Source: an uncultured Planctomycetia bacterium (GTDB lineage: Bacteria > Planctomycetota > GCA-002687715 > CAYQRN01). From it: DNA of 57,358 nucleotides. The notes under the pieces are model-generated. The model was not told the DNA's origin. It ran no database searches and saw only the letters and a program-made list of their open reading frames with translations. Where the stretch lies: NCBI GenBank assembly GCA_964419995.1, contig CAYQRN010000001.1, positions 1 through 57,358 of the forward strand. Reading direction: 5' to 3'. This document shows positions 42,495-53,664 of the stretch, one piece after another. Both the position numbers and the translations under genes were made by a program. How positions within the stretch are numbered: the first letter of the stretch is position 1; every line of letters begins with the position of its first letter.

Positions 42495-42935
42495 ATGCAC
42501 TGGAACCAGAGTACAAGGATCGCTCTCCTCGCCGCGCTGGACATGGCGCGGCGGGAGGACGGCTTCGTCACGGTCGCCGACATCGCGCGGCGCCATGGCG
42601 TTTCCGCGAGCCACCTCGCCAAGGTCCTTCGCGCCCTTGCGCGGGCGGGCCTCGCTGCGGCGTCGCGGGGCGCCGCGGGGGGCTACCGCCTCGCACGGCC
42701 CGCCGGTCAGATCACGCTCTTCGACATCGTGACTCTCTTCGAGGATCGCGACCGCGGGGGCTTCCGGTCCCGGAGCGACGCCTCCTTGACGGATCCGGCG
42801 ACCCTCGCCCTCGCGGGCGTCTTCGCCGAGATCGAGGACACGGCCTTCACGACCCTCCGGACGGTGCAGCTTTCGACGCTCATCCGTCCCGCAGCGGCCG
42901 GCCGCCGGCTTCGGGCGTCCGGAGGCCGGCGCTGA
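42495..42935 (+). CDS. Rrf2-family transcriptional regulator
   Basis: Motifs are STRIALLAALDMARR, the HTH VTVADIARRHGVSASHLAKVLRALARAGL, and SRGAAGGYRLARP. I see no C-terminal Cys cluster, so it is probably not an Fe-S-sensing type. Confidence 0.8.
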   Translation: MHWNQSTRIALLAALDMARREDGFVTVADIARRHGVSASHLAKVLRALARAGLAAASRGAAGGYRLARPAGQITLFDIVTLFEDRDRGGFRSRSDASLTDPATLALAGVFAEIEDTAFTTLRTVQLSTLIRPAAAGRRLRASGGRR

Positions 42936-43828
42936 TGGGGCCGCCGGAGTCCGGCGAACCCGCCATCGAGGTGTCGGACCTCTGCCGGACGCTGGGTGGC
43001 CGGGGCAGGGGAGGGCGGGTCGCGGCCGTGGACGGCGTCTCCTTCCGCGTGGAGCGCGGCAGGGTTCTCGGCCTCTTCGGCCGGAACGGCTCGGGCAAGA
43101 CGACGATCCTGCGCCTCCTCTCCGGACTCCTGCTCCCGACCCGGGGCCGCGTCCTCCTCCTCGGTCGTCCTCCGCGTCATCCCGATGTTCGCGGCCGCAT
43201 CGCGTGGGTTCCGGAGGAGGGGGAGCTCCCCTCCTTCCTCACGGCGGAGGAGACGCTCCGTTTCCACGTCGGCCTCATGGGGGAGAGGCCCGCGCGGGAG
43301 AGGAGCCGCGTGCAGGCGGCGCTCCGCCGCTTCGGTCTCGCGGAGACGGGCCGGAAGAGGGTGGCCTCGTTCAGCCGGGGCATGCGCCGCCGGCTCGCCC
43401 TCGCGGTCGTCCTGATCCGCCGCCCCGCCGTCGTTCTCCTTGACGAACCTACGTCGGGGCTCGATCCGGAGGGACGGGCGGCCTTCCGCGATGCCGCGGC
43501 CGACCTCACGCGGGAGGGCGCCACGGTCGTGCTGAGCTCCCACGACCCCGAGGACCGGGCAGGGCTTGCCGATGCCCTCATCATCCTCGACGCGGGCCGC
43601 GTGGCCTTCCAGGGGACGCCCGAGGACCTCGCGATGTCGCTCCGAGCGGTGGATCTCACGATCACCGGCGTGGGGCCCGGGGACTGGGACGCCATCGAGG
43701 CGGCCGTCCGGGCGCGGGGCGGGGCCGTGACGGATCGCCGGGCTGCGGAGTCCGCCGTGTCGGCCCGCTGGTTCGCCCGGCCCTCCGGCGGAGATGCCGC
43801 CGGCGGCCCCGGAGGCGGCGCGCCGTGA
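42935..43828 (+). CDS. ABC transporter ATP-binding protein (ABC-2/DrrA-like) with a roughly 70-aa C-terminal extension
   Basis: Its ATG shares one base with the Rrf2 stop (TGATG). Motifs are Walker A GRNGSGKTT, signature FSRGMRRRL, Walker B VVLLDEPTSGLD and H-loop LSSHD. Confidence 0.9.
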   Translation: MGPPESGEPAIEVSDLCRTLGGRGRGGRVAAVDGVSFRVERGRVLGLFGRNGSGKTTILRLLSGLLLPTRGRVLLLGRPPRHPDVRGRIAWVPEEGELPSFLTAEETLRFHVGLMGERPARERSRVQAALRRFGLAETGRKRVASFSRGMRRRLALAVVLIRRPAVVLLDEPTSGLDPEGRAAFRDAAADLTREGATVVLSSHDPEDRAGLADALIILDAGRVAFQGTPEDLAMSLRAVDLTITGVGPGDWDAIEAAVRARGGAVTDRRAAESAVSARWFARPSGGDAAGGPGGGAP

Positions 43829-45021
43829 GGAGGCGGGTCGCGTCCGCCGCGTGCCTCCTCGCGGACCACGTCGCGCGGCGCCTCACCCGGGCCGGCGTCC
43901 CGCTCGCACTCGTCGGAGGGACGGGGGCCGTTCTCGCCCTCCATCCGTTCTTCCGAAGCAGCGGGCCCGAGGCGGATCGCACGCTGTTCCTCGACCTCGC
44001 CGGCGGCGCCGCCGTCGTCCTCACGCTCGGCGCGGCGCTGCTCCTTTCCGCGCGGCTCACGGCGCCGCGGGACGGCCTCATCGCCGCCTCCCATCTCGCG
44101 CTCTGGCCCGGACCCGCCGCGACCTGGCTCGGCGGCGGGATCGCGCTCTCGCTCGTCCTCGTGGCTTCGGCAGCCGCGGTCGGGCTCCTGGCCCTCGGCC
44201 AGTATGCCGTGCGGTTCGGCGCGGCGGATGCGGGGGACGCCGCCCGGGCGGTCCGAGTCGAGGTGCCGTTGCTTCGCCCGTCCCCGGGTCGCGTCCTCCT
44301 CACCGGCGATGCCCCCTCCGCGACCTTCCGTTTCGCCACGACGCCGGAGGATCTCGCCGACGGCGTGCTGCGCCTCGATCTCCGGGCGGGACTCCTCTGG
44401 ACGCCGGGCACGACGCTCCCGCGGCGCGTGCCGGTGGAGGTCGTGCTACTCGATGGTGCCGGGCGGGAGGCCGCGCGCGCCCGCCCGTCTCTCTCCGGAG
44501 AGCGGATCCGGTCCGTGCTCCTCGTGCCTTCCGGCACGATGGGGCCGCCGCCCCATGCCGTCCGGGTGACCCGCGTCCATCCGGGGTTCGATCTTCGCCT
44601 CGGGCCGGGGGACGTGCGGCTCCACGGGAAACGCGGAGCCTTCATCGGCGGCGCCCTCCGGGGACACCTCGCTCTCGGGCTCCGGGCGGCCACCGTGGCT
44701 GCCTTGGGCCTCCTGGCGTCGGCGTTCCTGTCCGAGTCTCTGGCCTTCCTCCTCGCCCTTCTCTGCGTCATCCTCGCCGACAGCCGCGAACTGCTCCTCG
44801 AATCCGGCTGGTTCGGAGGCAGCACGGCTCCGGGAGTGGCGCTGAGAGCGATCCTGGCGCTGCTGCCGCCCTCTCCGGGGCGCTCTCCGTTCGCCGATGT
44901 CGGCAGCGGCAGGACCCCTCCGAACACCGAGCTTTGGGCCGAGGCCCTCCGCTGGCTGGCAACGCTGTGCGCGGGAGGACTGGTCGTCTACCTGGGCCGG
45001 CGGCGGAGCGACGTCCCGTGA
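43825..45021 (+). CDS. Polytopic membrane protein with a large beta-rich extracytoplasmic insert (candidate permease partner)
   Basis: The start forms a GTGA overlap with the ATPase stop. It has about 4 N-terminal and about 4 C-terminal hydrophobic segments flanking a roughly 150-aa soluble region (VRVEVPLLRPSPGRVLLTG...VRVTRVHPGFDLRLGPGDVRL). I recognise no family motif. Confidence 0.55.
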   Translation: MRRRVASAACLLADHVARRLTRAGVPLALVGGTGAVLALHPFFRSSGPEADRTLFLDLAGGAAVVLTLGAALLLSARLTAPRDGLIAASHLALWPGPAATWLGGGIALSLVLVASAAAVGLLALGQYAVRFGAADAGDAARAVRVEVPLLRPSPGRVLLTGDAPSATFRFATTPEDLADGVLRLDLRAGLLWTPGTTLPRRVPVEVVLLDGAGREAARARPSLSGERIRSVLLVPSGTMGPPPHAVRVTRVHPGFDLRLGPGDVRLHGKRGAFIGGALRGHLALGLRAATVAALGLLASAFLSESLAFLLALLCVILADSRELLLESGWFGGSTAPGVALRAILALLPPSPGRSPFADVGSGRTPPNTELWAEALRWLATLCAGGLVVYLGRRRSDVP

Positions 45022-46235
45022 CATCCGTGCCGGTCCGCCTCGCCGTCATGATCGCGGCCTTCGCCCTCGCCGTGGTCCTCCGCCTCCCGTCCACGCGGAC
45101 GGGAGCGCCAGGCATCGTGACCCCCGCCGGGGCGGACCTTCCCGTCTTCGCCGGGACGGTCCTCGCCGGAGCCCTCCGTCCCCTGGCCCTCGACACGCTC
45201 TGGCTCCGTGCCGACCGGGCCTATCGCGAGGGCCGGCCCTTCGCGCTCCTCGCGGATCTCGCGCTCCTCGCGGCCCTCGATCCGGGGAACGATCGGGCGT
45301 GGAGCTATCAGGCGGCTTTCCTGCTCCACGACGTCGCGGGACTCGAAGACAACCCCGATGAACGCTTCCGGTGGGTCCGGGAGGGCATCCGTTTCCTCGA
45401 GGCCGGCATCGCGCGGAATCCGCGCAGCGTCGATCTGCGCCTCGGCGCGGCCCGCGCTCTCATCCACGTCGCCGGCGAAGATCCGCGGTGCTATCCCCAC
45501 GCGATCCGGGCCTGGCCGGAAGGACCTTTCGCAAGGGCCTTCGCCCATGCCGCCGGCGCCGAGCGGCTGGCTCCCGGAGATCCGCGGCCGCTTCGCGCCG
45601 CGGCCCTGGCTGCCTTCTTCCGGATGCTCGAGGCCGCGGCGGCGGGAGATCGGGCGGAGGCCGCCCGGGCCGCCTCCGCTCGTCTCCGCCGCCTCGAGGC
45701 CCTCGGAGCCGGAGAACTCGACCCTCCGGCGCCGCGACTCTTCGAGGCGGCCACGCGATGGGACGGCGTCTTCCGCGCGCTCGCCGAGCCGGCTGCGGAA
45801 CCCGCCGAGGCTCTCCGCGGGGCGATGCGCGGTATCGAGGCGGAGATCCGCGCGACCCCGCCCGAGGGAGGCGTGGAAATCTCCGATGGGAATGCGGGGC
45901 TCGTCGCGGCCTGTCTCAGACTGGTCCTCGTCGAGATCGTCCAGGGGATGACGGCCGGCCGTTCCGAGGGTGCCGCGGCGCTCCTCGCCGAGGTCCGGCG
46001 CCTGACCGGCCTCTTTGCAGCGTCCCGTCCCCGACATGCCCTCGCTCACGACCCGGCCCTCGTTGCGGACCTCGAAGCTCTGGCGGCCTGCGAGGAGCGG
46101 TACGGTCCCGCCGGGGCCCGCGGCGGGACGGAGACGGGCTCCCGCCCCGATGTCGACGGGATCCTCCGGCGCCTCTCCGCCCATGGGAGGAAAGAGCCTG
46201 CCGTGGCCGCGCTGCTTGCGTCGCGGCGCCGGTGA
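45018..46235 (+). CDS. N-terminally anchored all-alpha hypothetical protein
   Basis: The start forms a GTGA overlap with the preceding stop. It has a single N-terminal TM segment (VRLAVMIAAFALAVVLRL). The rest is Ala/Leu/Arg-rich and helical, possibly TPR-like. I recognise no family motif. Confidence 0.5.
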   Translation: MTSVPVRLAVMIAAFALAVVLRLPSTRTGAPGIVTPAGADLPVFAGTVLAGALRPLALDTLWLRADRAYREGRPFALLADLALLAALDPGNDRAWSYQAAFLLHDVAGLEDNPDERFRWVREGIRFLEAGIARNPRSVDLRLGAARALIHVAGEDPRCYPHAIRAWPEGPFARAFAHAAGAERLAPGDPRPLRAAALAAFFRMLEAAAAGDRAEAARAASARLRRLEALGAGELDPPAPRLFEAATRWDGVFRALAEPAAEPAEALRGAMRGIEAEIRATPPEGGVEISDGNAGLVAACLRLVLVEIVQGMTAGRSEGAAALLAEVRRLTGLFAASRPRHALAHDPALVADLEALAACEERYGPAGARGGTETGSRPDVDGILRRLSAHGRKEPAVAALLASRRR

Positions 46236-46273
46236 TCGGACCTTGACGGCGACCCGTTCCGGGGAAATCCGCC

Positions 46274-48103
46274 ATGTCGACCCGTCTCGTTGCGCTCGGC
46301 CTCGCCGCGGAGATCGCGGCCCTGCTCGTCGTGCTCGCAGCCGGTCGGGCCAGGCGCGGGGCCGCGGCATCCCGCGCGGGCGGGGGTGCGTTTACGCAGG
46401 GTATCGGGCTCCTTCTCCGCCTGCATGGCCGTGGTCTCGTCGCGGTCACGCTCCTCCTCGCCGGCTTCGCGGCCGCTGCCTCGCCCTCGGCCCGTCCGGG
46501 CGCCGCGCTGGCGGTCCTCGCCGGATCAGCGGCGGCGCTGCTCCTCGGAATCGCGGCGGCGGGACGCCTCCGGCCGGGGGCAGCCCCCGAGGATCGCGGA
46601 TCGACGCGTCCCGCCGCGGTCCTCGTCCCCGCTGCGGTTCTTCCGGCAGGCCTCCTCTTCCTCGGCACCGCCGGGTTCGCGGCGCAGGATCCCCGCGCCG
46701 TGTGGCTGCCGGCGTCCTTCCTGCTCGGCATGGCGGGATCGGTGGCCGTGCTCCGGTTCGGAGCGGTCGTGGCCGGCGAAGGACTCGCCCGCGCAGCCCG
46801 GGACCTGCCCGGGATGGAGGCCGGCCTCCGTCCCGATGACAGCGGGATTCCCGCCTTCCTCCGGAACGAAGGACCGCTGATCGGCGGTGTGTTTCCCGTG
46901 GTGGAGCGGGCGCTCCTGCTCCTCGCGGCGCTCTTCGCGACCCGCTGCTTCGTGATCCTCGCGCCCCCCGATCGCGTCGAATCGCTTCTCGGACCGGCGG
47001 GCGCGGCGGGGATCGGACCGCGCCTCGCGGAATTCGCTTTCCTCGCCGCGGCCTTCACCGCTGCCGGATACGCCCTGCTCGGGATCGTCGCCGGCCGAAG
47101 CCGCGGGGCGCCGGCGTCTTCGGCGGCGATCGGGATCGCGGCTCTCGCCTCCTTCCTGACCGGCGCGCTTCTCGGCGTGGGCATCGCCTGCGCCGCGTGT
47201 GTCGTCCTCGGCGTGCTGGTTGCCGAACTGGCGGACGTCGCCGCCCGGCGCACCATCGAGGCCCGCTGGCGCGATACCGGACCGGAGGGGGATCCCGGCG
47301 GCGATCCCGGGTTCCGTCCGGCCTCCGCGCGGGCCGCCGTGACTCTCGAGGCCGTCATCCTGATGGCGGGTGTGGCCCTCGCGCTGCGCTTCGCGGGGCC
47401 CCTCGGGTCGCTCCTTCTCTCTTCGGGCCTCGCGCTCCGCGCCGTTCTCCGAACTCCGGAGCCGGTGGCTCCGTCGCCACCGTCCGCCGCCTGCGATCCT
47501 CCCGCCGTCGCTCTCTCCGCCGGATGGATCGGCGCGATTCTCCTCGTCACGTTCTGCGACGCGATGACGATGGCGGCCGTCCGATCGGGGAAGGCGGCCG
47601 AGCTGCTAACGACCCTCGGATCAGGTCACGAAACGGCCACGACATTCCTTCCGTTCTTCCCGGTGGTCGAGGCGCTGGCGGGCATCCTCGCCGGAGGCCT
47701 CTGCGGGACGCTTGCCGGCGGGTCGCCCGCGCGGGCAATCGGACGTGTCGCCGCCGTGGTCATCGATGACATCCGCCGGCAGCTTCGGGTGGGGCCCGCC
47801 GGGGGGAATGCCGGGCGCGGGGTCCCCGTCCGCGTCGTGGGGCGGGCGGCAGCCCTCCAGTCCGTGCCCCGCGTCGCGGCGATCGCGTTTCTTCCCCTCG
47901 CGACCGGAGCGATTCTCGGCCCCGTGATCGCCGCGGCATGGGTGGCGGGCTTCTGCCTTGGCGCCGCCGCGCGCGGCGAGACCGCCACGATTCTGCGTCT
48001 CCGGGGCGCCTCGGGGGGCGAGGCGGGCGTGGGCCCCGGCGCCATGGCCGTGCTTGCCGGCGCCTCGGCCGTCGTGGGGGCTTCGATTCAAACCCTTATT
48101 TGA
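46274..48103 (+). CDS. Polytopic membrane protein resembling a membrane-integral pyrophosphatase (M-PPase) but lacking the catalytic Asp motifs
   Basis: It is 609 aa with about 14 hydrophobic segments. By eye, [30 protein letters not shown] aligns with M-PPase [41 protein letters not shown]...[24 protein letters not shown] aligns with VVEEVRRQF...ALKEMIIPGLLAVLAPIAVGFLLG. The C-terminal [18 protein letters not shown] aligns with [24 protein letters not shown]. Confidence 0.5.
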   Translation: [609 protein letters not shown]

Positions 48104-48245
48104 AAGAGACTTGAGTCGAAATCTGAGCGGGGATCCCTGAAGGCCTTTCCGGGGGGGCATCCGACCTGTAGACTGGGCGGCAGAGCGGTGCTACCGCTCT
48201 TCACCGATCCGGCGGAGTCCAGGAAGGCGCAACGAAGACGACGCG

Positions 48246-48665
48246 ATGCCAAGACAGACTGCGGGGGAAGTCGTAACGGAACCGACAGGCAACCTCACGG
48301 CCACGGCGCTGGCCCATCTCGCGGCGGACATCATTCTCGACAAGAAGGGCGAAGATCTCGCGGTCATCGATGTGTCCGAAGTCACGGACATCGCCGACTA
48401 CGTGGTGCTCGCCACGGGGATGAACGTCCGCCAGACTCGCGCCACGGCCATCGAGATCGACCGGGTCATGAAGCAGAAGGGCCGGCGCAAGCTCGGCATG
48501 CACGGCGCCGACCAGGGGCGCTGGGTGCTCGTCGACTACGGCGACGTCGTCGTCCATCTGCTGCTGGATGACGCGCGACGGTTCTATGATCTCGATGGAC
48601 TCTGGGGCGACGGCCGCGTGGTCCGGAAGGTCGAATCGGGCAGGAAGGCTGCCAGTACGGCCTGA
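48246..48665 (+). CDS. rsfS: Ribosomal silencing factor RsfS (iojap family)
   Basis: Motifs are DKKGEDLAVIDVSEVTDIADYVVLATG, WVLVDYGDVVVHLL and RRFYDLDGLW. Confidence 0.9.
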   Translation: MPRQTAGEVVTEPTGNLTATALAHLAADIILDKKGEDLAVIDVSEVTDIADYVVLATGMNVRQTRATAIEIDRVMKQKGRRKLGMHGADQGRWVLVDYGDVVVHLLLDDARRFYDLDGLWGDGRVVRKVESGRKAASTA

Positions 48666-50106: not shown

Positions 50107-53100
50107 CTACCGCGCCTCGGCGAACTCCACGGACTCGATCTCGACGAGTCCGGGAGTCGCGCCGAAGTCGAGCACGACCCGCTCCCCGGGGGTGCAGTCG
50201 GAGAGCGGGATCGAGATCATGTCCGTCCCGGCCATGGCCGACCCCGCCCGGCGCGGAACCCCCTCCCGGGACAGGATCGATGCCCGGACCTCCCGCGCCT
50301 CCGCGTTTCGATCGAAGGCTCCCCGGATCCTGACGACGGCGCTGCCTTCGAGGTCGGGAGGGAGGTCGAGAGTCACGACCGCGGGGCCGAGTACCGGCAG
50401 GAGAGCGCAGATTCCGCCTGCCGTCGCGGAGGCCGTCGCCAGAGCCCCGGATACGCCACCCGCGGCCAGGATCTCCCGGCCGCTCCGGCGGCGTCCCGGC
50501 GTGTGGGGGGGGTGGATCCAATCTGATCCGGCGCCGGCGGCGCAGAGACGCACCGCGTCATCGCCCGGCGGCAGGCGCAGTTCCGCCACGATCGTGAGGG
50601 TGCCACCGTCCGGGACGAGCACGAAAGGCAGGGGGATCGCGATGCTCGTCCGCCCGCCGCCTCCGGTCTCCCACGCCGCCTCGATGGAGTCCGGGGCGCG
50701 CCCGCCGCGCTCCGGCCGCATCGCGATCAGGAAGCGTGCCGTTCCGGCGACGGGCGGGCCCGCCGTGATCCGCTCCAGGACGACGCTCGAGCGGGGTCCG
50801 CCGGTCCGGGCGAGGGCGAGGAGCCGGGGGAACGGAAGATCCGCCAGAGTCTCCCGTTCACCGGCTCGCCCGGCGAGTAACTCCTCCGCAAGGCGCATGG
50901 CTGCGTCGAGGATCTGGGGGTCGACGCGGCGTTCGAGGCTGGCCCGGATCCGACCTGCGACGGGCGGCGTCGCTCCGGGGAGGAGCAGGATCAGGAGCTC
51001 GTCGGCCTCGCCACCGCCGATGCTCGCCGCCGCATCCGCCAGGTCCGCCCGCGCGGATTCCGCGATGAGACCTTCCCTCACGATCCTCGCGCAGATCCCG
51101 TCGAGGCCGTCGCCGGGCGAAAGGGCGAGGAGCCGCCGGGCCATGGCGACGAAGCGGCCGCTTCGGATGTCCGAGCGCGCGAGCTCGAACCGCAGCGCCG
51201 CGACGGCGGCTCCTCTCTGCCGGGGTGCCAGGGCTCGGGCGGCGATGGTCCGAATCGTCCCGTCGGGCGAGAGGAGGGAACCGGGGTCGTCGCCGGGCGG
51301 GTCACCGGCCACGAGGCGGCGGAGCCACTCCACGGAGGGACTTCGCTCGCGGCGCGACGCCGCCAGGGCTGCTGCCCCCTCCGGGTCGATGGTCGAAGCG
51401 AGGCGCAACGCCATGAACCTCTCGCCGTCGGTGGCGGAGAGGGCCTCCTCGAGGTCGGCGAGGGAGCCGGGAGCCGCCCAGATCTCGAGCAGGTAGAGCG
51501 CGGCGATGCGGGCGCCCGCGTCGAGGCCCCGGAGCCTGGCGCGGAGCCGGGGCGCGAGGGCGGCATGCCCCGGCGTCGCGAGGAAGGCGAGCGCCCGGGC
51601 CTTCGCCTCCGGGTCGGAGCCGAGAAGATCGTGAAGGCGCCGGTGGAGCTCGCGATCGGCCGAGGCGGCGAGGGCGGCCGATCCGGCGCGGAGCCGCGCG
51701 TCCAGCGCCGCGAGGCCGCCGCGGAGCCTGGCCACCTCCTCGGGATGGCTTGCCGCCACGTCCCTCCTTTCGCCGGGGTCCGCGGCGAGGTCGTGGAGGA
51801 CGAAGGCGGCGTCCGCCTGGTAGTGAAAGAGCTTGAACCGGCCATCGACGATGACCCGGCAGTCGTCCGAGAGGGCGTCGCGGAGCCCGCGGCTCCGCGG
51901 CGACTCGGCGAAGGCGGCGCGGGGGAAGGCGATCTCCGGGTCGAGGAGGACGGGCACGAGGGAGACGCCGTGCATCCAGGCCGGGATCGGGAGACCCGCG
52001 AGCTCGAGGAGGGTCGGCGCGATGTCCACGTTGCCCGTGGGTCGGCGGATCCGGGCGGGAGGGAGACCCGGGACGCGAAGGATGAGCGGGACCCGGATCT
52101 GCTCGTCGAAGAAGCTCGTTCCGTGGTACCAGGCGCCGTGCTCGCCGAAGGCCTCGCCGTGATCCGAATGGATGGCGAGGACGGAATCGTCGAGCCGGCC
52201 GAGGCTCTGAAGACCATCGAGGAGTCCGCCGAGGGCGCGATCGGTCTCCCGGACCTCGGCGTCGTAGAGGGCTTCCGCGGAGGCTCCGGGAGGAGCCTCC
52301 GCGGGCGTATAGGGCGCGTGGGGATCGAAGAGATGGAGCCAGAGGAACACCCTCTGCCGGCCCGCCGCCCGAACGGCTCCGAGGGCCCGGTCCACGACGC
52401 TCGCCGCCGAGAGCCCCTTCTCCTCGCGGATCACCGTCCCGAAGCCCTCGAAGAAGCTCTCGAAACGGTGATCGGCGATCTCGCGGCCGGACATCCCGGT
52501 GACGGCGAGGGTGGTGAACCCCGCCTCGACGAGGATCGCCGCGAGGGGTCGCACGGGGCCTTCCGGTGCGCGACCCGTGAGATCCTCGTGGACCCGCGGC
52601 GTCTCCGACGGGTATCGGGCGGTGAGCATCGATGCCATGGAGAAGGCGGTCTCGGAGGCCTGGCTCCGATGCGCGAGGAAGGCGGTGGAGGCCGCGGCGA
52701 GCTCACGAAGTCGAGGTGCGACCTCAGCCCGGTCGGGGTCCTCGATGCGGTCGGCCCGGAGCGCATCGACGGTGACGAGGATCACCGAACGTCCGGCCGC
52801 CGTTCCGAGAATCTCATCGCGGCGGGCCATGCCGGCCGCGGAGTGCGGGGGCGGGTCGAAGAGGCCCGGCGTGGCCGCCAGGATCTCCGGAGGGTCGGCC
52901 CCTCCGGGCCAGGTTGGCAGGATCGCGCCGAAAATCCGCGTGGCGAAGAAGGCTGCGCTGCCGTTGATCCTCATGTCGGCGGCCGCCGGCGGCGGAGGCG
53001 GGGAGAGGATGCAGTGAGCGACCGCGGCGGCGGCGGCGGCGGCCCCGGCGATCCGGAGGATCCGGAACCGGGGGAGGAGCGGAGGCAGGGCCAGGGCGAA

Positions 53101-53664
53101 GAGGCCGAGGGCCGCCAGGGCTGCCATGGCGTCGAGGGCCGGGTAGCGGAGGCGAAAACCCCGGACGTCGAGGACGAGGGCGGCGAAGGCCGCCGCGAGG
53201 AGGGCGAAAGCCGCCGGACGATGGCGCAGAGCGCCGCCGCGGACGAGGCGGAAACCCGTGGCCAGAAGCACGGCCATGGCTCCCGCGGCGGCGAGGCGGA
53301 GGGCCATGCGCCGCACGGAGGGACCGGCGCCCGGCCCCTCCGTGAGAAGGAGGATCGCGATGCCCGCGGCGGGCAGGGCGAGAGCGGCGTCGGCCGCGGC
53401 GATGCGCCACGGGCTCCGCGGCGGACCCATCCGGCGGAGGGCCTCGAGCGCGCCTGCGAGGGCGGCGAGCAGGGTGGATGCGCCGGCCGTCGCGGCGGCG
53501 TAGTCGACCATGAGGCCGATCGTCGTGCGACCGTCGGGCGGAGGCGCGCCGGTCAGCCCGCGCCGGAGGGCCGTGACGACCGCCAGGACGAGGCCGCCGG
53601 CCACCACGGCTGCTCCCGTCGCGAGACCCGCGCGCAGCGGAGATATGCGAAGATCACTCCCCAC
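50107..53664 (-). CDS. Giant membrane protein: about 8 TM segments, an alkaline-phosphatase-superfamily (sulfatase/LtaS/EptA-like) domain, HEAT-like repeats and a C-terminal beta-rich region
   Basis: The start is set to the in-frame GTG at 53664, because upstream of it the frame lies inside the preceding gene. An ATG further in (MVDYAAA) is also possible. Sulfatase-fold motifs are VILVTVDALRADR, ETAFSMASMLTARYP, LWLHLFDPHAPY, HSDHGEAFGEHG and NVDIAPTLLELAG. The C-terminal half is Ala/Leu/Arg helical repeats. Confidence 0.7.
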   Translation of the reverse strand: MGSDLRISPLRAGLATGAAVVAGGLVLAVVTALRRGLTGAPPPDGRTTIGLMVDYAAATAGASTLLAALAGALEALRRMGPPRSPWRIAAADAALALPAAGIAILLLTEGPGAGPSVRRMALRLAAAGAMAVLLATGFRLVRGGALRHRPAAFALLAAAFAALVLDVRGFRLRYPALDAMAALAALGLFALALPPLLPRFRILRIAGAAAAAAAVAHCILSPPPPPAAADMRINGSAAFFATRIFGAILPTWPGGADPPEILAATPGLFDPPPHSAAGMARRDEILGTAAGRSVILVTVDALRADRIEDPDRAEVAPRLRELAAASTAFLAHRSQASETAFSMASMLTARYPSETPRVHEDLTGRAPEGPVRPLAAILVEAGFTTLAVTGMSGREIADHRFESFFEGFGTVIREEKGLSAASVVDRALGAVRAAGRQRVFLWLHLFDPHAPYTPAEAPPGASAEALYDAEVRETDRALGGLLDGLQSLGRLDDSVLAIHSDHGEAFGEHGAWYHGTSFFDEQIRVPLILRVPGLPPARIRRPTGNVDIAPTLLELAGLPIPAWMHGVSLVPVLLDPEIAFPRAAFAESPRSRGLRDALSDDCRVIVDGRFKLFHYQADAAFVLHDLAADPGERRDVAASHPEEVARLRGGLAALDARLRAGSAALAASADRELHRRLHDLLGSDPEAKARALAFLATPGHAALAPRLRARLRGLDAGARIAALYLLEIWAAPGSLADLEEALSATDGERFMALRLASTIDPEGAAALAASRRERSPSVEWLRRLVAGDPPGDDPGSLLSPDGTIRTIAARALAPRQRGAAVAALRFELARSDIRSGRFVAMARRLLALSPGDGLDGICARIVREGLIAESARADLADAAASIGGGEADELLILLLPGATPPVAGRIRASLERRVDPQILDAAMRLAEELLAGRAGERETLADLPFPRLLALARTGGPRSSVVLERITAGPPVAGTARFLIAMRPERGGRAPDSIEAAWETGGGGRTSIAIPLPFVLVPDGGTLTIVAELRLPPGDDAVRLCAAGAGSDWIHPPHTPGRRRSGREILAAGGVSGALATASATAGGICALLPVLGPAVVTLDLPPDLEGSAVVRIRGAFDRNAEAREVRASILSREGVPRRAGSAMAGTDMISIPLSDCTPGERVVLDFGATPGLVEIESVEFAEAR

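Follow-up and report, generated by a model that had tools for sequence, protein, structure and literature searches.

What is left of the gene for an ion pump once the pump itself has stopped working? The question is raised by a 57,358-nucleotide stretch of DNA from an uncultured Planctomycetia bacterium (contig CAYQRN010000001.1 of GenBank assembly GCA_964419995.1), the whole of which we call the window. In it a 609-residue polytopic membrane protein, ORF609 (for open reading frame), is encoded just upstream of rsfS, the gene for the ribosomal silencing factor. A preliminary description, made by eye from the letters of the DNA, took ORF609 for a homologue of the membrane pyrophosphatases (M-PPases) that had lost catalysis and been recruited into an ABC transporter operon. 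Few primary ion pumps are as conserved as the M-PPases, which normally keep well over 40% identity; we know of no catalytically dead member of the family. That proposal is partly supported here: its core, a dead M-PPase homologue, was right, and the recruitment was wrong. The reading that we favor, at a probability of roughly 60%, is that ORF609 derives from the M-PPase gene hppA, is catalytically dead, and is kept as a membrane protein under relaxed purifying selection.

Gene order and the loss of catalysis

Synteny is the decisive evidence for where ORF609 comes from. Because searches with ORF609 recover a single relative, 93% identical, rsfS was chosen as the anchor, and 80 rsfS neighborhoods were collected from GTDB genomes. 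An M-PPase gene is found in just one of them, that of the closest relative, the Planctomycetota metagenome-assembled genome CPC9 (locus L013), whose RsfS is 52% identical to that of the window. There it is the gene directly before rsfS, in the same orientation, and encodes a canonical enzyme of 705 residues (MAB91585.1, named sodium-translocating pyrophosphatase by NCBI), which scores 901.9 bits over the whole PF03030 model and has all catalytic motifs in place.

The same row of genes runs through both loci: GT4 glycosyltransferase, FHA protein, ABC ATPase, a membrane protein of about 390 residues, an ORF405-family gene, the slot in question, rsfS, orf155, and an ECF sigma factor. What fills the slot differs: in L013 it is the canonical M-PPase, in the window ORF609. 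By tblastn, the upstream flanks match in the glycosyltransferase (41% identical, 5e-76), the opposite-strand FHA protein (3e-12), the ATPase (40%, 2e-41), and the ORF405-family gene (36%, 1e-13), and the downstream flanks match in rsfS (1e-40), the opposite-strand orf155 (2e-12), and the sigma factor (61%, 5e-73). From ATPase through membrane protein, ORF405-family protein, and slot to RsfS, the products measure 277, 391, 362, 705, and 143 residues in L013, and 297, 398, 405, 609, and 139 in the window. ORF609 itself finds its best tblastn match in L013 in frame inside the M-PPase gene (residues 468-508 against 526-566, E 0.003). With hppA in the same slot and flanks matched on both sides, ORF609 is the positional orthologue of hppA. 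Positional orthology and colinear, in-frame residual similarity together make descent of ORF609 from hppA highly probable, and so bear out the homology that had been proposed by eye.

A third locus shows the slot empty. In L093 (NCBI GCA_040960315.1, 150-1663; RsfS 56% identical), an ORF405 orthologue of 364 residues, 37% identical to that of L013 (E 2e-50), is followed by rsfS after 47 nucleotides. Homologues of rsfS between 56% and 100% identity, sought as a route to lineages closer than L013, were not found. The contexts of two further loci, L094 and L095, are uninformative for slot content, and synteny followed through ORF405 homologues reached nothing but distant ABC-2 cassettes, in which an ORF609-like gene is absent.

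The loss of catalysis is independent of any alignment. Five M-PPases compared with one another share 15 invariant aspartates, eight lysines, and six asparagines, and these are not kept in ORF609, which has one lysine in total (an arginine in the 93%-identical relative, which has none), two asparagines, and no aspartate after residue 499. None of the motifs by which helices 5, 6, 11, 12, 15, and 16 bind Mg-pyrophosphate or activate the nucleophile, sought as K..D...D, DNxGDNxGD, GPxxDNA, D...N......K, DNAKK, and GDxxGDPxKD, occurs anywhere in ORF609; nor does DxxxD, GNTT, or GDxxGD. The ion-gate and coupling-funnel residues of M-PPases sit on the inner-ring helices, of which ORF609 has no recognizable trace; the preliminary description had suggested that an ion or substrate path might persist. 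Residue counts and the absence of motifs thus confirm, free of alignment, the earlier remark that the acidic and lysine residues had been replaced. Judged by its residues, ORF609 would be catalytically dead, neither hydrolyzing pyrophosphate nor pumping H+ or Na+ by the M-PPase mechanism.

Constraint and decay

At about 74% G+C (guanine plus cytosine), the window carries long spurious ORFs on both strands, and the reading frame of ORF609 was therefore checked first. The gene is called on two independent metagenome contigs, and frame, ends, and length are exactly those given in the preliminary description. Its G+C content at the three codon positions (0.80/0.62/0.83) resembles that of neighboring genes, and a 544-residue antisense ORF shows a noncoding pattern. 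Arginine makes up 8% of ORF609, a low figure against the 15-19% of junk frames. Two long antisense ORFs overlie the gene on the minus strand, at 46529-47605 (359 residues) and 45916-47550 (544 residues), with about 19% arginine. Because they are arginine-rich and because the substitutions between ORF609 and its 93%-identical relative (L007) sit mostly at their first codon position, both are by-products of high G+C rather than genes.

Selection on ORF609 was gauged against L007, a single pair at a synonymous divergence (dS) of 0.10. The two genes differ by 99 substitutions and no insertion or deletion in 1,830 nucleotides, with a nonsynonymous divergence (dN) of 0.037 and a dN/dS of 0.37 (binomial p = 1e-6 against neutrality); differences fall 26/20/53 over the three codon positions (p = 9e-5). 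At similar dS, dN/dS is 0.16 for rsfS and 0.09 for orf155. The constraint on ORF609, as estimated from these substitutions, is some three times weaker than that on its neighbors but real. On this one pairwise comparison at dS 0.10, ORF609 behaves as a pseudoenzyme kept by purifying selection.

Membrane topology may tell of constraint along the whole protein. Hydropathy gives ORF609 about 13-16 transmembrane (TM) segments, where the M-PPase family has 15-17 helices. When its hydropathy profile is globally aligned to that of the L013 enzyme, the score is 457, whereas block-permuted versions of ORF609 give 339 +/- 26 (z = 4.5); on the same scale reversed ORF609 scores 391 and real M-PPases 523-603. 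At TM1-5 the hydrophobic peaks of the two proteins match in position almost to the residue. Through near-complete turnover of the sequence, the TM segments have apparently kept an M-PPase-like succession, which favors descent over the full length and selection on the architecture in the membrane.

A course of events can be proposed on these grounds. In the ancestor common to the window lineage and L013, hppA would have stood between the ORF405-family gene and rsfS. The window lineage would then have lost the enzyme function, the aspartates, lysines, and asparagines that bind Mg-pyrophosphate disappearing together with the ion-gate residues from helices 5, 6, 11, 12, 15, and 16, and the dead gene would have diverged very fast under G+C pressure, to below 20% identity. 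Retained under relaxed purifying selection as a protein of perhaps 15-16 TM segments in M-PPase-like order and spacing, ORF609 would still show helices 13-14, with the RRQ stretch that extends them on the cytoplasmic side, and a marginal trace of the base of loop 5-6. What selection now preserves may be membrane insertion, packing, and possibly dimerization of a noncatalytic scaffold.

The alternative that survives best is that ORF609 is a degenerate hppA without any remaining function, a relic in slow decay, its frame kept open mainly by the rarity of stop codons at 74% G+C, and heading for a deletion of the kind seen in L093. Several observations here weigh against our reading, as do the limits of the sequence matches set out below. 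The empty slot of L093 amounts to complete loss of the gene in a third lineage, which fits ongoing decay. ORF609 is the fastest-evolving piece shared with L007, its dN being three times that of the neighbors (0.012-0.013). Its composition (alanine 23%, leucine 14%, glycine 14%) has drifted to GC-rich codons, with lysine, asparagine, and tyrosine (one residue) almost eliminated. Finally, at 74% G+C long open frames persist by chance, and spurious ones are common in the window. A relic without function is hard to reconcile, however, with a dN/dS significantly below 1, with an excess of third-position changes and no indel among 99 substitutions, with TM segments apparently kept in order along the whole protein, or with an arginine content far from that of junk frames. 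We consider such a relic possible, though on the unlikely side. Bacterial pseudogenes and the relic ORFs of reductive evolution offer the obvious comparison: they share with ORF609 the loss of function, faster evolution, and deletion in a related lineage, but ORF609 differs from them in a frame intact over 1.8 kb, the absence of indels between two lineages, its dN/dS, and its apparently retained TM architecture.

Residual similarity to M-PPases

Full-length ORF609 matches nothing in Pfam, NCBIfam, or the PDB sequences at E<=10, and for want of such a match it was missed by routine annotation. Its composition, rich in alanine, leucine, and glycine, also makes by-eye matches to hydrophobic proteins unreliable. 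A profile hidden Markov model (HMM) built from four annotated or evident M-PPases of four phyla, and scored with the HMMER filters off, gives ORF609 15.8 bits and aligns its residues 415-573 to profile positions 501-652. The best of 4,000 global and local shuffles of ORF609 reaches 7.0 bits, its reversed sequence -5.8, and the next best of 200 six-frame window ORFs of at least 150 residues 0.1 bits; no canonical hppA is present among these 200 ORFs of the 57-kb window. A Pfam match appeared only once ORF609 was cut into fragments. For fragment 415-609, PF03030 (H_PPase) then stands at the top of 24,736 families (E 0.002, 17.3 bits; residues 466-573 against model positions 474-581 of 645), and for the 93%-identical relative it scores 18.8 bits (E 7e-4; positions 474-583 at most). 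None of six control fragments (one reversed, five shuffled) matches PF03030. Alignment by hhalign to M-PPases returns the same C-terminal segment and nothing else (E 4.7e-5, probability 68%), and when five M-PPases are compared by tblastn with the six-frame translation of the window, the four best matches fall at 47516-47965 in the frame of ORF609 (E 7e-5 to 0.05). The idea of a frameshifted pseudogene was also entertained; the same tblastn comparison shows no M-PPase relics in the other frames of the window, and ORF609 is therefore not one.

These matches are limited in several ways. The scores of ORF609 and its relative, 17-19 bits, lie below the curated gathering cutoff of PF03030: where membership asks for at least 29.7 bits over most of 645 positions, ORF609 falls short and the L013 enzyme, as control, aligns over positions 2-645. 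One reversed control gave an unrelated Pfam match at E 0.019, so that E-values of this size are fragile on the composition of ORF609 and the PF03030 evidence from fragments is, by itself, borderline. Similarity is limited to some 110-150 residues, and overall identity to M-PPases is below 20%. A word-indexed search, an exhaustive phmmer search of 1.84 billion representatives, and a GTDB genome scan returned a single homologue, the 93%-identical one; with two sequences there is no family profile, no covariation, and one pairwise dN/dS. AlphaFold2, run on the two-sequence alignment, gave no usable fold model (predicted local distance difference test score, pLDDT, 37; predicted template modeling score, pTM, 0.27).

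The preliminary description had lined up three stretches of ORF609 with M-PPases, and they fared differently. The second, VIDDIRRQL in the region of helices 13-14, stands: its sub-profile scores 15.4 bits, a value that none of 6,000 shuffles reaches, and Smith-Waterman alignment gives p <= 2e-4. The first is marginal. When the loop 5-6 peptide is compared with ORF609 by Smith-Waterman alignment, the top match is precisely residues 177-204 (p = 0.007-0.02); the profile tests give no significant score there (E 0.47), and the position is colinear with M-PPase order, the catalytic aspartate, lysine, and asparagine residues being replaced; a plausible reading of this peptide is a remnant that runs from the last part of helix 5 through loop 5-6 into helix 6. 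The third, at the C terminus, did not hold: it gives p = 0.23, and the top-scoring match lies elsewhere. Sub-profiles cut from helices 5-6, from helices 15-16, and from the first 500 M-PPase columns likewise find no signal in ORF609.

Could the supported segment, then, be all that hppA contributed? A chimera, in which hppA supplied the C-terminal third (helices 13-14) and the remainder came from a different membrane-protein gene or arose de novo after partial deletion, would account for similarity confined to residues 415-573 and for an N-terminal part of 414 residues that scores no better than shuffles against M-PPase columns 1-500. It would leave unexplained the coincident hydropathy peaks of TM1-5 and the global hydropathy alignment, the colinear position of the best loop 5-6 match, and gene boundaries and a length that fit one continuous gene (609 against 705 residues in L013, shorter by about 100, in line with the shortness noted earlier); we hold it improbable. 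Still less can be said for an unrelated membrane protein, whose likeness to M-PPases would be chance in a sequence rich in alanine, glycine, and leucine, and whose place beside rsfS would be coincidence. The absence of any full-length match, the fragment score below the Pfam cutoff, and the unrelated hit of the reversed control would suit it, but none of 10,000 shuffles reaches the real score, other ORFs of the window hardly score at all, the matches are colinear and in frame, and the family that comes top is the very one whose gene takes the place of ORF609 in the nearest genome and in none of the other 79 loci; this makes it very improbable. As for an extremely divergent M-PPase that is still active, nothing speaks for it beyond homology itself, and the near-absence of lysine, the lack of aspartate after residue 499, and the missing catalytic motifs reduce its likelihood to almost nil.

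Descent of the full-length gene, as we prefer, allows the surviving residues to be placed on the enzyme, a homodimer with six helices in the inner ring and ten in the outer ring. From our reading of the motifs, residues 415-573 would represent TM13, the cytoplasmic 'EVRRQF' extension, and TM14, in the outer ring on the side of the dimer interface. Helices 13-14 of the M-PPase outer ring have been described as 'of largely unknown function'; the dimer interface is built from helices 10, 13, and 15 (PMC10897367). From helix 5 and loop 5-6, a relay, E5.71-R13.62-10.33', runs to helix 13 and on to the neighboring subunit (PMC5150537, PMC10897367), and K5.58 coordinates phosphate (PMC5150537). ORF609 keeps every conserved arginine at the end of helix 13 (R491, R501, and R502). 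If K5.58 is the lysine of the TKAAD motif, as we assign it from VrPPase numbering, E5.71 is the glutamate of GKVEAG, and pairwise Smith-Waterman alignment puts E182 of ORF609 in its place. On this mapping, a single structural contact, E5.71-R13.62, would thus have one end in each of the two stretches with residual similarity.

It is conceivable, if doubtful, that ORF609 is a functional pseudo-M-PPase: a dead subunit that keeps helices 13-14 and the E5.71-R13.62 contact, on the side of the fold that faces the dimer interface, and serves as a noncatalytic scaffold in the membrane, or else regulates or forms heterodimers with another protein, such as a canonical M-PPase encoded elsewhere in the genome.

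The neighborhood and the fate of an apparently dead pump

The coordinates of ORF609, its segments, and its neighbors are collected in Table 1.

Table 1. ORF609, its segments, and adjacent features of the window
Feature	Coordinates	Strand	Description and evidence
ABC transporter ATPase	42935..43828	+	297 aa; Pfam ABC_tran 9e-32; L013 counterpart
TM398	43825..45021	+	membrane protein without family match; probably permease partner; barely similar to L013 counterpart
ORF405	45018..46235	+	N-terminal TM segment and helical domain, without family match; orthologues in L013 and L093
ORF609	46274..48103	+	609-aa polytopic membrane protein; degenerate positional orthologue of M-PPase gene hppA; gene call, coding signature, synteny, dN/dS
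Residues 177-204 of ORF609	46802..46885	+	possible loop 5-6 relic; Smith-Waterman; E182 aligned with E5.71
Residues 415-573 of ORF609	47516..47992	+	supported M-PPase segment; HMM, Pfam, hhalign, tblastn; only segment with statistically supported similarity
Residues 592-609 of ORF609	48047..48100	+	third by-eye stretch; placed at TM16 by colinearity; without recognizable similarity; Asp absent beyond residue 499
Spacer ORF609-rsfS	48104..48245	+	142 nt; 2/142 mismatches against L007
rsfS	48246..48665	+	ribosomal silencing factor; Pfam RsfS 1.4e-29

The recruitment of a pseudoenzyme as the last gene of an ABC operon, as the preliminary description had it, is contradicted on two counts: a canonical hppA already occupies that position in L013, and the cassette of ABC and ORF405 genes also exists without such a gene, in L093 and in the P0004 loci, which are distant and Planctomycetota-like. 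In the latter, the ORF405 relative follows an ABC2_membrane_2 permease and no ORF609-like gene is present. The adjacency of hppA to the ABC cassette is ancestral and dispensable, and ORF609 is probably not functionally tied to the cassette. For neither TM398 nor ORF405 do Pfam and NCBIfam offer a family, and their row resembles an uncharacterized ABC-2-type cassette. TM398 reaches only 8.9 bits against its positional counterpart in L013, a divergence so strong that the lineage itself must account for part of the fast evolution; in M-PPases, conserved as that family is, fast divergence still implies that enzymatic constraint was lost.

Other features of the window were seen along the way. The spacer between ORF609 and rsfS differs from L007 by 1.4%, less than any flanking coding region (2.9-5.4%), and is AT-richer than its surroundings. 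In L013 the stop codon of hppA overlaps the start of rsfS, and the spacer is thus specific to the window lineage. It may be a promoter or leader of rsfS; it has no Rfam match and no fold beyond that of shuffles, and no RNA or regulatory explanation was found. Between the FHA gene and the ABC ATPase lies a gene for an Rrf2-family regulator (42495-42935), whose stop codon overlaps the ATPase start and for which tblastn finds no counterpart in the otherwise syntenic L013 locus. Downstream on the minus strand, at 50107-53664, a sulfatase-domain protein of about 1,185 residues with multiple N-terminal TM segments is encoded, followed by an 868-residue protein without a family. Together with the ECF sigma factor and with the SBP_bac_10 and T2SSE genes of the P0004 loci, these genes are consistent with Planctomycetota as the source. 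The window (1-57358) has no tRNA genes and no Rfam families at gathering score.

How, then, does ORF609 stand among known proteins? With the M-PPases (PF03030; for instance MAB91585.1, TmPPase, and VrPPase), it shares the genomic slot and orientation seen in L013, the helix 13-14 pattern AxGRxA...(E/D)(E/D)xRRQ(F/L)R..P, and, marginally, the pattern DLxG.xEAG...DD...PA at the end of helix 5 and in loop 5-6; by hydropathy it may also have about 15-16 TM segments in M-PPase-like order. Unlike them, it scores below the curated cutoff, is about 100 residues shorter, is without catalytic or ion-gate residues, and is known from one narrow lineage. Pseudoenzymes, such as pseudokinases and iRhoms, are dead homologues kept for scaffolding or regulation. 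ORF609 resembles them in its homology to an enzyme, its lost catalytic residues, and persistent purifying selection, but typical pseudoenzymes usually show clear family membership, whereas the erosion of ORF609 is far more extreme and a sister lineage has deleted the gene. Full-text literature, covered in part, yielded no reports of inactive or pseudo M-PPases, which is absence of evidence and not proof of novelty.

For annotation the locus holds a practical warning, since the origin of ORF609 became clear only through synteny and not through routine annotation. Were ORF609 a functional pseudo-M-PPase, it would be the first described, and would make use of the coupling between subunits to which the asymmetry of M-PPases is now attributed. 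As far as its sequence tells, ORF609 would be a rare natural case of a 'dead' ion pump, its gene known from one narrow uncultured lineage. Across three related lineages the same locus presents an intact pump, a dead but apparently still-selected remnant, and an empty slot, in effect a natural experiment on what survives the loss of catalysis.

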